From an uncultured Lentisphaeraceae bacterium (lineage in GTDB: Bacteria; Verrucomicrobiota; Kiritimatiellia; RFP12; UBA1067), in the NCBI GenBank assembly GCA_964557205.1, contig CAZKZI010000004.1, forward strand, positions 1 to 46,442: a DNA stretch of 46,442 nucleotides. Direction: 5' to 3'. Each line of letters begins with the position of its first letter. Position 1 is the stretch's first letter. A program made the translations under genes and the position numbers. A model generated the notes under the pieces. That model ran no database searches and was not told where the DNA came from. It was given only the letters and a program-made list of their open reading frames with translations. Positions 814-32,987 of this stretch are shown one piece after another.

Positions 814-1071
814 CGATCCCGCATAGAGCGGGATCGGCGGACGGTTCGGGGAACCATCCCCAGTAGCGTCCCATAGGACGCATAGGCTGTTAGCTTTTTA
901 GGCTGTAGGCTATTAGGTTAAATGCAACTGGCGCGTATGTTTCAATAAGCAAACGGTATTTTGTGTAAAAAAACGCATTTGCTTGTTTTGCGCATCAAAA
1001 CCGTTACTTTTGTACAAACCTAAACACCTCACAGTCTAAACACCTAAACTCCTGCATCCTATGGGATGCTA
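814..1071. repeat. Intergenic mosaic of palindromes, REP-like units and 8-bp tandem repeats
   Basis: Hairpins at 814-836, 839-859, 866-881 and 1054-1069; 864-920 and ~1016-1071 are imperfect inverted copies containing TAGGCTGT/CCTAAACA-type octamers. Confidence 0.65.
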
Positions 1072-1083
1072 ATGTTTTCAATT

Positions 1084-16185: not shown

Positions 16186-16198
16186 TCTCACATCTTAA

Positions 16199-16339
16199 GC
16201 GTCTTCGGGGCAAGGTGATTCCGGGTTACCGGAAAATTCCTGACCGGCGGTAGAGCCCGCGACTGGCAAGCTGTTCCTGCCTGCCACTGACACGGTTAGA
16301 TTCCGTGGCCGACAGTAAAGTCTGGATGTTAGAAGGTGC
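16199..16339 (+). ncRNA. FMN riboswitch (RFN element)
   Basis: TCTTCGGGGCAAGGTGA..AATTCCTGACCGGCGGT..AGCCCGCGA...GATTCCGTGGCCGACAGTAAAGTCTGGATG..AGAAG; P1 GCGTCTTC/GAAGGTGC; upstream of ribBA. Confidence 0.96.
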
Positions 16340-16356
16340 TGAAATGTTGATGATTT

Positions 16357-29736: not shown

Positions 29737-31528
29737 GTCAGAGAACGTAAAAAAAGGTGTGTGCGATATGCGCATGCTGAACGGTTTGCCGGTTTCGCGG
29801 GGCTTTGTGTCCGGCCCAGTTTTTCTGTTTAGGTCCACTGGCTGTGAGCAGATACCGGAATACCGTATTGAGCCGCATCAGGTGGCACTTGAAAATGCTC
29901 GCCTGGCAAACGCATTGTCTTTGACAAAAAACCAGATACATTCTTTGGCCAATGAACTTAAAAAGCGTATCAGTGGTGATGAAGCCACTATTTTCGATGG
30001 TCACCTGATGATGCTCGACGACCCTTCGTTTACGGGGTCTTGCAACGATAAAATAAGCAAAGGGCTTTTTAATGCCGAAGCGGCTGTGGACGCTGTCGCC
30101 GAACAATATTTCTCGATTTTCGCGGCTATGGATGATGTGTACCTGAAAGAACGCGCCACGGATATAAGCGATATTGCAAAAAGAATCATACATAACCTTT
30201 CGGGACGCGGCGAAGTGATTATATCAAGGCTGGAAAGACCGTCCATAATCGTCGCAGACGAACTTTCCCCTTCAGAAACAATCGCTTTGCCGAGGAACAT
30301 GGTTTTAGGATTTGCTACCGACAGGGGCAGTGCCACTTCGCACGCATCTCTTTTGGCACGTGCTCTCGGCATACCGGCGGTTGCGGGGTTGGGCTCCATT
30401 TCAGAAACAGTCAAAACCGGAGACCTGTTGCTTTTAGATGGCACAAGGGGCAAGGTGGTTCTCAACCCTGGCAGGGAAGAGTTCGCGGCTTTCGATAAAA
30501 TGGCGGAACGGTCTAAAGCGATCGAAGCTAATCTGGAACAGGGCAAGTTGTCAAAAGGTGCCACCCGCGACGGCCATATGGTTCCTTTCCTTGCTAATAT
30601 CGACCATAGCACTCCGATAACTGATCTTTATGCTGTAGGGGCTGAAGGAATCGGCTTGTACCGTACCGAGTATTTATGGATGGCCTATGAACGCGAGCCC
30701 ACAGAGGAAGAGCAGGCGCACGCTTATACTACAGCGGTCAGGGCTATGCCGGAAGGTCTGCCCGTAACAATCCGTGTGCTGGATCTTGGCGGCGATAAAA
30801 TAACCAGCGATGCTGCCTCGCATAAGGAAGCAAACCCATTTCTCGGCAACCGTTCGATCCGGTTTCTGCTACGGAACAGGGATGTTTTCCGACGTCAGTT
30901 ACGGGCAATCCTGCGAGCAAGCGCACACGGCATTGTACAGGTAATGTATCCTATGATCGCCACTATTGAGGAGTTGCGGGCCGGGAATAGCGAGCTGCGG
31001 GCCTGCATGGCTGAGCTTAGGCAAGCGGGTATTCCTTTTGACGAGAATTTGCGGCGCGGTGTTATGATTGAAATACCGGCAGCCGCCATGATTGCCGATA
31101 CCTTGGCGAAAGAGGCGGACTTTTTCTCGATCGGAACTAACGACCTTATCCAATATGCGCTAGCTGTTGACAGGCTTAATGAAACCGTGGCGAGGCTTTA
31201 TCAGCCGACCCATCCCGGAGTTTTGCACTTGATCGATATCACCATACAAGCGGCACAACAGCACGGGTTGAAGGTTGCGGTGTGCGGTGAGACTGCGGCT
31301 GATCCGTTTCTGGCTGTTCTATTGGTGGGAATGGGTGTTGACGAACTGAGCATGTCTCCCAATCTGATACCACTTGTGAAAAAAGTTATCCGCCAAATCA
31401 CCCTTGACGAGGCCAAACTTTTGGCAGAAGAGGTGCGGCGCATGACTGGATTGCCTGCCGAAAAAATTTATGCTCATTGCCGTAACTCTATTCTAAAGTT
31501 CGTGCCTGATCTGATGTATATTCAATAA
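29726..31528 (+). CDS. ptsI: PTS enzyme I
   Basis: TSHASLLARALGIPAV, GIGLYRTEY, RVLDLGGDK, EANPFLGNR, FSIGTNDL.QY, CGE. Confidence 0.96.
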   Translation: MSSESENVKKGVCDMRMLNGLPVSRGFVSGPVFLFRSTGCEQIPEYRIEPHQVALENARLANALSLTKNQIHSLANELKKRISGDEATIFDGHLMMLDDPSFTGSCNDKISKGLFNAEAAVDAVAEQYFSIFAAMDDVYLKERATDISDIAKRIIHNLSGRGEVIISRLERPSIIVADELSPSETIALPRNMVLGFATDRGSATSHASLLARALGIPAVAGLGSISETVKTGDLLLLDGTRGKVVLNPGREEFAAFDKMAERSKAIEANLEQGKLSKGATRDGHMVPFLANIDHSTPITDLYAVGAEGIGLYRTEYLWMAYEREPTEEEQAHAYTTAVRAMPEGLPVTIRVLDLGGDKITSDAASHKEANPFLGNRSIRFLLRNRDVFRRQLRAILRASAHGIVQVMYPMIATIEELRAGNSELRACMAELRQAGIPFDENLRRGVMIEIPAAAMIADTLAKEADFFSIGTNDLIQYALAVDRLNETVARLYQPTHPGVLHLIDITIQAAQQHGLKVAVCGETAADPFLAVLLVGMGVDELSMSPNLIPLVKKVIRQITLDEAKLLAEEVRRMTGLPAEKIYAHCRNSILKFVPDLMYIQ

Positions 31529-31621
31529 CGTCGGGAACCGGGCTCTCGGAAACACGCGCAGGCAGGCCAGAGCATAGCGCAGGGCGTGAAGCACGGAGAT
31601 GAAAAACGGGAAAAAACGAGG

Positions 31622-31649
31622 TTGACTCTTTTCACTCCCTCCGTATACT
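31622..31649 (+). promoter_or_regulatory. sigma70 promoter driving the candidate small RNA (and perhaps the ROK gene)
   Basis: TTGACT-16 nt-TATACT; predicted start ~31656-31657 coincides with the first base of a long stem. Confidence 0.7.
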
Positions 31650-31656
31650 AGATATC

Positions 31657-31759
31657 AATGGTTGTCCTGTGCCGTGCTATTTCAGTTCAGCAGGGTGCTG
31701 AACGGGCGAAGGCAGACAGCCTCAGAGATCCGACGAACGCGGCACAATACACAACCATT
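31657..31759 (+). ncRNA. Unassigned ~103-nt structured RNA candidate
   Basis: Ends pair: AATGGTTGT/ACAACCATT and TGTGCCGTG/CGCGGCACA; internal hairpin GTTCAGCA-GGG-TGCTGAAC. Confidence 0.6.
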
Positions 31760-31853
31760 ATTACGCTCCCTGAATCACCCTTACAACAGCGGTGAGGGGC
31801 TTCAAAAAAAAGAAGGGCGAAGAGACGGACTCAACCAGGGGCTGAACCAGCAG

Positions 31854-32987
31854 ATGACGCGGCGGCTTAATAAGGTTGCGCTCTTGCGTCTTTTGCACAT
31901 ACACGGGCCGATGTCCCGCGTGGAGCTGGCCGCCAGCCTCGGTTTGAATACCAAGACCATGACCAACCTGTCGCGCGAGTTGCTGGAACGAGGGTTTGTC
32001 GAGTCGGCCGGCATGGCGATCTGCAGTCGTGGCCGACCTCGTGAAATGCTGCAATTGAGCACCTCTAAACTGAATGCGATCGGCTTGCATCTGGAAGAGC
32101 ACCAAATCAGCGGCGCTTTGGTCGGTTTGGACGGTTCGATCCGGGAGCGATGCCTCCTTCATCTTTCAGGAAAGGAAAGCCAGCGGCGCTTGAAGGATCT
32201 TGTCTCGGACATGGCTCTGCATCTGTCGGTCGCGGCTCAGGGTCAAACCGTCGGAACGGGGTTAACGATCCCCGGCGTGGTGGATCATCGTACGGGGCTT
32301 GTCGTAAAGTCCACACATTTGCCCGCTTGGGTTGGCGTGAACGTGGCGACCTTGTTGGACGGTGTGTGTAAGGGGGCAGTCCAGGTGGAAGCTTACACTC
32401 CGGCAAAGGCCCTGGCCGAACGCTGGTTCGGCGCGGGTACTGACGTGGACGATTTCATTCTTTTGGATGCCGGTGTGGGAATCGGGTGCGCCGTCGTGAT
32501 CCAAGGCCGTCTGCACATGGGACAGAGCCACATGGCCGGTGAGATCGGCCATGTGGTGGTCACGCCGGAGGGCGAAACATGCACCTGCGGTCGCAGAGGT
32601 TGTCTCGAAACCGTGGCGTCTTTGGGCGCGATGCTGGAACAAGCGGGACTTGCCTCTGAAAATGCTCGCGCCCGCCCCCAAGACCTCCTGGCTGAGCGTC
32701 TACACACGGGCGACAAAGCCGTGCAGCGAATCGTGGAGAATGCCGGTCGCAGCATCGGCCTCGTCCTGTCCGCCCTCGTCGCCGCACTGAACCCATCCCG
32801 TGTGGTGCTGACGGGCGACGCGTTGGCGCTGGATCCCCTTTTCACGCGGACGGTTCGCGACTCCGTGACGGCTTTCACGCTGCCACAACTGACCCGTGAT
32901 CTGACGGTCGTCCCCAGCCGGATCGGTCAGGACGCGGCGCTTCTCGGCGCGGCCGTGCTTGGCCTGCAATCGCTCTTCGATGTCTAG
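31854..32987 (+). CDS. ROK-family transcriptional regulator (NagC/XylR-like)
   Basis: N-terminal HTH (SRVELAASLGL), GRP, AERWFGAG, GVGIG, AGEIGH, CTCGRRGCLETVAS; start uncertain, TTG 31662 rejected. Confidence 0.9.
   Translation: MTRRLNKVALLRLLHIHGPMSRVELAASLGLNTKTMTNLSRELLERGFVESAGMAICSRGRPREMLQLSTSKLNAIGLHLEEHQISGALVGLDGSIRERCLLHLSGKESQRRLKDLVSDMALHLSVAAQGQTVGTGLTIPGVVDHRTGLVVKSTHLPAWVGVNVATLLDGVCKGAVQVEAYTPAKALAERWFGAGTDVDDFILLDAGVGIGCAVVIQGRLHMGQSHMAGEIGHVVVTPEGETCTCGRRGCLETVASLGAMLEQAGLASENARARPQDLLAERLHTGDKAVQRIVENAGRSIGLVLSALVAALNPSRVVLTGDALALDPLFTRTVRDSVTAFTLPQLTRDLTVVPSRIGQDAALLGAAVLGLQSLFDV

Follow-up and report, generated by a model that had tools for sequence, protein, structure and literature searches.

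A truncated IS701-like insertion sequence end with a predicted outward promoter precedes a ROK-family regulator gene in an uncultured Kiritimatiellia bacterium

Introduction

Insertion sequences can switch on neighbouring genes by means of outward-facing promoters, as is known for pOUT of IS10, for ISAba1 and for others, and IS10 also encodes RNA-OUT, which is antisense to the start of its transposase gene. The locus described here resembles the outward promoters in its layout: A complete promoter lies near the end of an element and in front of unrelated host genes, in our case 205 nt before a gene for a ROK-family regulator. It differs from them in that the copy at hand is a solo fragment rather than an active element, and in that its promoter is a predicted one. 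The arrangement is also unlike that of RNA-OUT: In a complete relative of the element (locus L238) the transposase gene is on the opposite strand with its start at 1568, and a distance of about 470 nt, without any overlap, separates this start from the outward promoter. The closest family is IS701 (IS4/IS701-type DDE), which the element resembles in its single DDE transposase of about 467 amino acids with IS701 NF049999 as the best NCBIfam match, in its short inverted tips, in the 8-bp target duplication that one of four elements with both flanks displays, and in its many truncated and solo copies. Unlike IS701 proper, it has an additional divergent DUF6788 gene, only one of five transposases reaches the NCBIfam cut-off, and this Kiritimatiellia element carries an outward promoter and a covarying fold of about 100 nt in one or both of its ends. 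We know of no description of such a combination of promoter and covarying folded end for the IS701 family.

Two published systems share features of this arrangement. Promoter reuse by putative mobile promoters, i.e. highly similar upstream regions in front of non-homologous genes across genera and families, has been described (PMC3575422); our units are similar in that copies of 78-86% identity precede diverse genes across genera, and different in that the vehicle is identified here as the end of an insertion sequence. In the PeSL cassettes of T4-type phages, a strong sigma-70-like promoter together with stem-loops is repeated at the borders of shuffled gene blocks, and the stem-loops are terminators in the phage genomes (PMC2839356). 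The likeness is one of arrangement only: Our units are chromosomal, bounded by a transposon tip, and have no T-run in 32 of the 33 copies. 6S RNA, too, is a strong fold behind its own promoter; it comes from a single stand-alone gene and forms a rod of some 180 nt that has a bubble in its centre, in contrast to a multi-copy unit of about 100 nt with two hairpins that has no Rfam match. From the known riboswitch classes the unit is set apart by the lack of an Rfam aptamer match, by unrelated downstream genes and by the absence of an expression platform. A search of articles without their supplements gave no publication that joins Kiritimatiellia with a promoter, leader, riboswitch, sRNA or RNA motif, and PMC11109978 makes no mention of PVC taxa in its main text.

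The DNA analysed, hereafter the window, is a stretch of 46,442 nucleotides (positions 1 to 46,442 of contig CAZKZI010000004.1, assembly GCA_964557205.1) from an uncultured Lentisphaeraceae bacterium that is placed in the Kiritimatiellia.

Results

A predicted promoter and a strong fold in front of the ROK gene

A preliminary description had drawn attention to positions 31622 to 31759, with a near-consensus promoter, two 9-bp stems and an 8-bp hairpin, and had seen in them a stable stand-alone RNA or a cis-acting leader. The features of the region, as they result from the present work, are:

31553 to 31745, plus strand: truncated right-end fragment of an IS701-like insertion sequence, lacking the transposase, the second end and the last 7 tip bases
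31553 to 31577, plus strand: remnant of the last DUF6788 codons with a TAG stop (31575-31577); aligns to L238 1973-1997
31622 to 31649, plus strand: predicted outward-facing sigma-70-type promoter of the element; -35 box TTGACT (31622-31627), C-rich spacer of 16 nt, -10 box TATACT (31644-31649)
31660 to 31721, plus strand: long 5' hairpin domain, conserved in the family, with the base GGUUGU...ACAGCC; helix 1 has changes on both sides in all of its 9 pairs
31685 to 31703, plus strand: 8-bp hairpin at the apex, with a GGG loop; no stem of the family is better conserved; 94.7% of cells paired, compensatory changes in relatives
31729 to 31745, plus strand: degenerate remnant of the terminal-inverted-repeat hairpin, reduced to the CCG/CGG core and without the tip TCTCAAG
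31742 to 31745, plus strand: fusion point GCAC between the insertion sequence end and the native ROK upstream region
31751 to 31759, plus strand: 3' arm of the closing stem, beyond the element in ROK-derived sequence; the stem is not conserved across the family
31854 to 32987, plus strand: ROK-family regulator gene (MarR-type HTH and ROK domain; Pfam ROK E 3.6e-45), the first gene downstream

The promoter scan recovered the described TTGACT-16-TATACT promoter at 31622-31649 with 10 of 12 consensus matches, and transcription is predicted to start near 31656-31658, about 7 nt past the -10 box. Since 2 promoter-like sites occur in 1.4 kb against 0.9 +/- 1.1 expected, the match is unremarkable on its own; it gains weight because related copies share it (22 of the 28 that have enough upstream sequence). 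The same scan found no terminator-like site between the element and the ROK start, and the reported absence of a U-tract after the 31759 region was borne out for the window copy.

The fold is as described: An outer stem of 9 bp joins AATGGTTGT (31657-31665) to ACAACCATT (31751-31759), a second stem of 9 bp with one G-U pair joins TGTGCCGTG (31668-31676) to CGCGGCACA (31738-31746), and 8 bp with a loop of 3 nt make up the hairpin at 31685-31703. The RNAfold minimum of 31657-31759 consists of exactly both stems and the hairpin (-41.0 kcal/mol; shuffles: mean -28.1, sd 3.5, z -3.71, 1 of 200 as good). The minus strand of the same stretch is equally stable (z -3.72), so that the strand cannot be read from the window copy alone. 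In Rfam 15 the stretch has no match at the gathering thresholds, and at E<=10 the region 31450-31950 gave three eukaryotic noise matches only; two intact copies of the unit were unmatched as well. The claim of a strongly folded, putatively transcribed stretch without a known family agrees with the Rfam search, and the 6S models among those searched gave no match at the gathering score or at E<=10.

The unit is the right end of an IS701-like element

The identity of the unit is seen in a BLAST comparison: Window positions 31553-31745 are 80% identical over 195 nt to positions 1973-2166 of L238 (E 3.7e-37), and L238, from a relative in the window's own family (G041), is a complete IS701-like element of 2031 bp (143-2173). 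A metagenome motif scan for the 3' end ...GGCACTCTCAAG gave at least 80 loci, of which 5 are true covariance-model matches; the rest are chance occurrences of the pattern or the tip motif only. In the repeat analysis, several of the listed metagenome loci had the tip motif twice, inverted and 2-3 kb apart, i.e. as terminal inverted repeats. Together with L238, four metagenomic elements with the same tips (L162, L199, L139 and L167) are complete, and terminal inverted repeats are present in all five:

L238, 165 to 1568, minus strand: transposase, 467 amino acids, DDE; Pfam DDE_5 and DDE_Tnp_1 above cut-off
L238, 1647 to 1997, plus strand: DUF6788 open reading frame, 116 amino acids; Pfam DUF6788 E 7.6e-11
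L238, terminal inverted repeat: 20 nt, 80%; the left repeat is short
L162, terminal inverted repeat: 23 nt, 91%
L199, terminal inverted repeat: 25 nt, 92%
L139, terminal inverted repeat: 103 nt, 94%
L167, terminal inverted repeat: 61-74 nt, 88-95%

At the right end of L238, the DUF6788 frame is followed by the outward promoter, by a folded stretch of about 100 nt and by the tip at 2173, which reads ...GGCACTCTCAAG. The conservation among copies stops exactly at this tip, and the 3' end is the best-conserved part of the unit. In L139 and L167, the promoter and the whole folded stretch lie inside both long inverted repeats (103-130 nt, 88-95% complementary). The transposases between the tips have 467-472 amino acids, belong to the DDE type and are 53-91% identical to one another; Pfam DDE_5 and/or DDE_Tnp_1 scored above cut-off for L162, L199, L167 and L238, the L139 frame (688-2088) being outside the Pfam set. 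IS701 NF049999 is the best NCBIfam match of all five (E about 1e-43 to 1e-52; 3e-43 for L238). As the NCBIfam cut-off of 170 bits is passed by L162 only (176 bits) and the other four score below it, we refer to the element as IS701-like. A perfect 8-bp target duplication flanks L199; none is clean at L238, L167 and L162, and L139 lacks one flank. Genome G020 holds a truncated copy that is 93% identical to the L238 element.

A transposase lies beside the unit at 4 of the 18 loci tested, and the other 14 have none within 1.5 kb; none was found in the genome of the window, an assembly of the MAG type, which would lose full repeats. That most assembled copies are solo could also mean host use or a host origin of the unit. 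The block conserved upstream of the unit corresponds to the terminal part of the element's DUF6788 gene.

Three other interpretations of the unit's surroundings were dropped. An apparent 472-aa DUF6788 protein upstream of the unit is an antisense frame of the transposase joined to the real DUF6788 frame of 116 amino acids, and a search with its L139 counterpart gave no homologues. A MITE does not fit, as no inverted tip was seen within 1.5-3 kb upstream of solo copies, L046 and L047 excepted (about 415 nt upstream). Finally, the conserved upstream block is not a degenerate earlier copy of the leader: Its local alignment to the leader is no better than that of shuffles (157-803 of 1000 as good).

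The window copy is fused to the upstream region of an apparently transferred ROK gene

Judged by these alignments, positions 31553-31745 are a truncated right-end fragment of an IS701-like insertion sequence, in which the folded stretch breaks off at GGCAC. On the outer side, its border is defined by a genome of another genus, G007, which has no insertion sequence end: The region upstream of its ROK gene aligns with window positions 31742-31853, beginning at GCACA[A/G]TACACAA. As this alignment starts at 31742 and the homology to the insertion sequence ends at 31745, the two sequences are fused at GCAC. Where the window has 31751-31759, G007 reads ACAAAAGTT, which indicates that the 9-bp complementarity of the outer stem was partly pre-existing and is partly new.

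The surroundings point to a transfer of the ROK gene. Synteny with genome G002 of the same genus (80% over 2.7 kb) does not extend past the ptsI stop (31528), after which four relatives have a convergent gene instead; moreover, the ROK protein is 89% identical to its ortholog in G007, and PtsI is 83-85% identical within the genus. The ROK gene appears, from these comparisons, to have arrived by horizontal transfer. The unit thus sits between hprK, ptsH and ptsI on one side and, on the other, ROK followed by two SDR genes, a split transketolase, DUF4838, a fucokinase/GDP-fucose pyrophosphorylase and an AraC-PAS regulator. In one lake metatranscriptome run, three contigs cover the ROK coding region from 31847 on (depth 2.5-2.8) and none covers 31553-31846; since contigs can show neither starts nor absence, they count neither for nor against activity of the promoter.

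At the G007 ortholog (L119, G007:C412), a tRNA-like 3' end with T-arm and CCA lies about 265 nt upstream of the gene (around 1150-1236); ARAGORN reports no tRNA gene at this position, and the sequence may be the remnant of an attachment site of an island.

Copies, distribution and neighbours

Two further copies were found by BLAST in the genome of the window, on contigs C7 (83% identity) and C113 (86%), and copies in other genera are 78-85% identical; every match ends at window position 31745. On the scale of L238, these two other copies start at 2016 and at 2081 and reach the tip, and the window copy starts at 1973. With a covariance model, the unit was detected in 11 of the 151 genomes of the family and in 8 of its 27 genera, a single genome having as many as 7 copies. 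A second model detected it in 5 of 52, 5 of 7 and 1 of 31 genomes in three families of the order, and gave none in 60 genomes of the eight other families of the order; nor was the unit found in 150 other genomes sampled across the class. Its range comprises these 8 genera of the own family and two further families.

The genes downstream of the copies are mutually unrelated, and the upstream genes differ too. Downstream we find ROK (window), an ECF sigma factor with FecR, an acetyl-xylan esterase, AraC, three PATR giants, LamG, LRR_5, a DpnI-like gene and DUF6915; between the unit and the following start codon there are 4-135 nt. The proposed check whether homologues stay beside ptsI or ROK genes had a negative outcome: No copy other than that of the window adjoins either. 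Contig edges, where collapsed repeats come to lie, account for 5 of the 33 copies, and a T-run follows the last hairpin in 1 of 33.

A two-domain fold covaries across the family

Laid over 21 copies, the structure noted for the window leaves 66.7% of cells paired and shows no excess covariation. The paired ends, which had been taken as a sign of a stable RNA, are private to the window copy, as the corresponding columns pair in 37.9% of cells. A two-domain model, in which a long 5' hairpin capped by the noted 8-bp hairpin is followed by a 3' hairpin, gives 86.6% paired cells in the same 21 copies; both sides are altered in 8 pairs, where shuffles give 3.3 (3 of 500 as high). With 33 copies including the divergent family, 86.9% of cells are paired and 18 of the 33 pairs change on both sides, against 10.3 expected from shuffles (55 cells against 14; 0 of 500 as high); this count, the strongest, comes from an alignment that had been fitted to the model. 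A structure-blind MAFFT alignment yields the same helices weakly (17 pairs, -7 kcal/mol). Covariation among relatives, which had been proposed as a check, supports the two-domain fold of the family and not the structure originally noted. Two very divergent copies fold on their own into the family shape (z -3.7 and -3.6), and four other divergent copies fold little or no better than shuffles (z -1.6, -0.65, 0.0 and +0.8).

The plus strand is the more stable one in 15 of 16 copies, by 8.2 kcal/mol on average, and G-U pairs outnumber A-C pairs by 85 to 22. Both observations suggest that selection acts on the structure in the outward transcript rather than on a palindrome in the DNA. For the window RNA up to 31745, the minimum is the 5' hairpin of the family (-29.9 kcal/mol), and the closed fold of -41.0 kcal/mol wins only once 31751-31759 is present. 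The equilibrium fold in the window hence differs from the family fold, and the best-conserved 3' motif of the family is absent.

Several functions of the RNA were considered and set aside. An rRNA-type boxA does not fit: The rRNA leader of a complete relative has GATCTTTTGACAA, and the CTCTCAAG of the element is no match and is base-paired. Docking of CsrA has no support, no CsrA gene having been found in the genome of the window (92.7% complete). As to antitermination by a NusG paralog, no copy of the unit lies near the second NusG-like gene, which is located at C15:25897-26112 (the housekeeping one is on C54). A leader peptide is not supported, since conservation does not extend to the ATG at 31658 and the frame is interrupted by indels. 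A search of the own genome for an intergenic trans partner complementary to the tip motif gave no convincing site.

Discussion

We consider it probable that the locus is the scar of an insertion sequence whose outward promoter now reads into the ROK sugar operon, rather than a dedicated small RNA gene. The right end of the complete element consists of the DUF6788 gene, a strong predicted outward sigma-70-type promoter and about 100 bases that can fold into two hairpins, the terminal hairpin of the outward transcript being formed by the inverted repeat that ends ...GGCACTCTCAAG. In the genome of the window, the transposase, the other end and the last 7 tip bases are missing, and the rest is joined to the ROK upstream region at GCAC, where synteny with close relatives breaks off. 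The surviving promoter would start transcription near 31656 and continue through bases derived from the insertion sequence into ROK and the sugar genes; we infer this read-through from the right orientation of the promoter, its distance of 205 nt and the lack of a terminator-like site in between. The window RNA would then be a 5' untranslated region of insertion sequence origin and not a gene of its own. The earlier idea of a cis-acting leader of the ROK cassette is correct as to the position before ROK; the unit itself is an insertion sequence end. Within intact elements, the fold is presumably selected on the outward transcript and serves the element; candidate functions are the provision of stable outward transcripts or the expression of the transposase across joined ends.

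A more modest reading is possible, though we give it clearly less credit: The scar may be inert, i.e. it may simply mark a rearrangement mediated by the insertion sequence, with ROK using its own promoter downstream of 31745. The window copy is indeed truncated on both sides and lacks the conserved tip, the C-run in its promoter spacer is interrupted, and positions 31746-31853 are homologous to G007, which has no insertion sequence end, so that this segment may hold a native promoter. Nevertheless, the promoter has kept its 10 of 12 consensus matches and the 16-nt spacer, and nothing that resembles a terminator separates it from ROK. Moreover, the promoter is maintained in most copies although their inner breakpoints differ, which suggests that it is the promoter-bearing part that is retained.

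A quite unlikely explanation is that the units represent a host-owned family of cis-regulatory leaders of a glycan-utilisation regulon, which was captured by the insertion sequence and whose RNA docks a factor or stabilises the mRNA. The 14 loci without a nearby transposase, the covarying RNA fold, the regulators and surface proteins among the downstream genes and the occurrence of the same promoter type, with other leaders, in front of about 20 other host genes, mostly for secreted glycan-degrading enzymes, would fit such a family. However, the tip of the insertion sequence is the 3' border of every intact copy, and this tip is common to elements of other lineages that have only inverted repeats of 23-25 nt. 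The supposed conserved upstream block belongs to the DUF6788 gene of the element, MAG assembly favours solo copies over full repeats, and the distance to the next start codon varies from 4 to 135 nt.

The stand-alone small RNA that had been proposed, whether 6S-like or trans-acting, we regard as most improbable. The strong and compact fold with paired ends, the promoter and the lack of a known family are properties of the window copy that speak for it; but there is no terminator, T-runs are all but missing after the copies, the paired ends are not conserved, the unit of about 100 nt with two hairpin domains is no 6S rod with a central bubble, and it is multi-copy, patchy in its distribution (11 of 151 family genomes) and placed before unrelated genes. 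A new ligand-sensing riboswitch, e.g. for a second messenger, is equally hard to defend: The presence of many copies ahead of various genes for surface and regulatory proteins, the conservation of an internal loop and of loops, and an alternative GUGCC/GGCAC pairing that is possible in most own-family copies can be cited for it, but there is no Rfam match and no expression platform (no terminator, and a variable distance to the ribosome-binding sites), the alternative pairing is absent in the divergent family, and the diversity of the downstream genes is explained by the insertion sequence origin.

The scar reading removes a false lead, as there is no new 6S-like or PVC small RNA at 31622-31759, and it documents an uncatalogued IS701-like element of the Kiritimatiellia whose ends contain a complete outward promoter together with an RNA fold that covaries. 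Remnants of it are found today ahead of genes for regulators, glycan-degrading enzymes and giant surface proteins; should their promoters be active, the debris of insertion sequences would be a source of gene rewiring in little-studied polysaccharide degraders. For the search for RNA motifs, it follows that multi-copy covarying leaders with sharp 3' borders and with many copies at contig edges should be tested first for being transposon ends. It is tempting to speculate, even if we think it rather unlikely, that the outward RNA is a new element encoded by the insertion sequence, which drives or gates expression of the transposase only when the two ends meet in a circle or tandem, or which shields the element from host read-through, and that solo copies have been domesticated as portable and, by their length-variable poly-C spacers, possibly switchable Kiritimatiellia promoters for genes of glycan-degrading enzymes and surface proteins.

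Related promoters and repeats

Several observations concern the promoter itself. The spacing between the -35 and -10 boxes ranges from 15 to 19 nt among the copies, solely by the length of the C-run (2-10), and near-identical promoters differ only by C7, C9 or C10 (e.g. L030, L028 and L033; L079, L080 and L076). Length variation of this kind would be typical of slipped-strand tuning or of phase variation; the C-run is interrupted in the spacer of the window copy. Around the -35 box there is an inverted repeat, GGGGTGAAAAG / CTTTTCACCCC (L028 1437-1489; window about 31594-31640), with matching changes on both arms in the window (GGAG/CTCC), which may be a protein site or a hairpin. At L079 and L080 (G035 C140 and C112, 100-400), two ends of the insertion sequence lie in tandem, the first promoter having an internal deletion, and a run of short GAAATGCT-like repeats follows the second copy of L080.

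The promoter type of the insertion sequence end (GGGGTTGACT, C-rich spacer, GCATAAT) occurs at about 20 sites in the genome of the window (G000), e.g. at C26:460-521, C53:15391-15465, C106:2408-2450 and C124:7222-7264. The genes behind these sites are mostly secreted and glycan-related (FGE-sulfatase, GH109-like, BNR sialidase-like, DUF4838 and beta-helix proteins). A strict form of the pattern gave 23 stretches in 185,579 species, nearly all of them MAGs of the Kiritimatiellia type. A fourth, very divergent folded copy of the unit is present at C106:2195-2241 (minus strand; L004 1195-1278; 17.8 bits, E 0.019), behind the same promoter type and ahead of a beta-helix glycan hydrolase-like gene. 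At most of the sites the promoter is followed by another leader, short (about 55 nt) and conserved, in which two ATGGGA boxes flank a covarying hairpin and whose end is CCTATGGGATGCTAGTGA; it has no match in Rfam. This leader and a longer variant with the same end occupy 12 and 4 sites in the own genome (e.g. C235:151-209, C13:102-145 and C57:10312-10372), with relatives at L098-L117; as many copies are at contig edges, it may be the end of another mobile element.

Two further features lie elsewhere in the window. The only Rfam match of the window above the gathering thresholds is an FMN riboswitch at 16197-16341 (plus strand; 93.9 bits, gathering score 66.2, E 1.8e-20). A repeat of about 90 nt at 983-1074 (plus strand), which begins with TTGTTTTGCGCATCAAAA and ends, like that leader, in the box CCTATGGGATGCTAATG, has about 20 copies in the genome and, in the window, points at the 3' end of a convergent gene; the box occurs 35 times in the genome, often less than 100 nt from a contig end.
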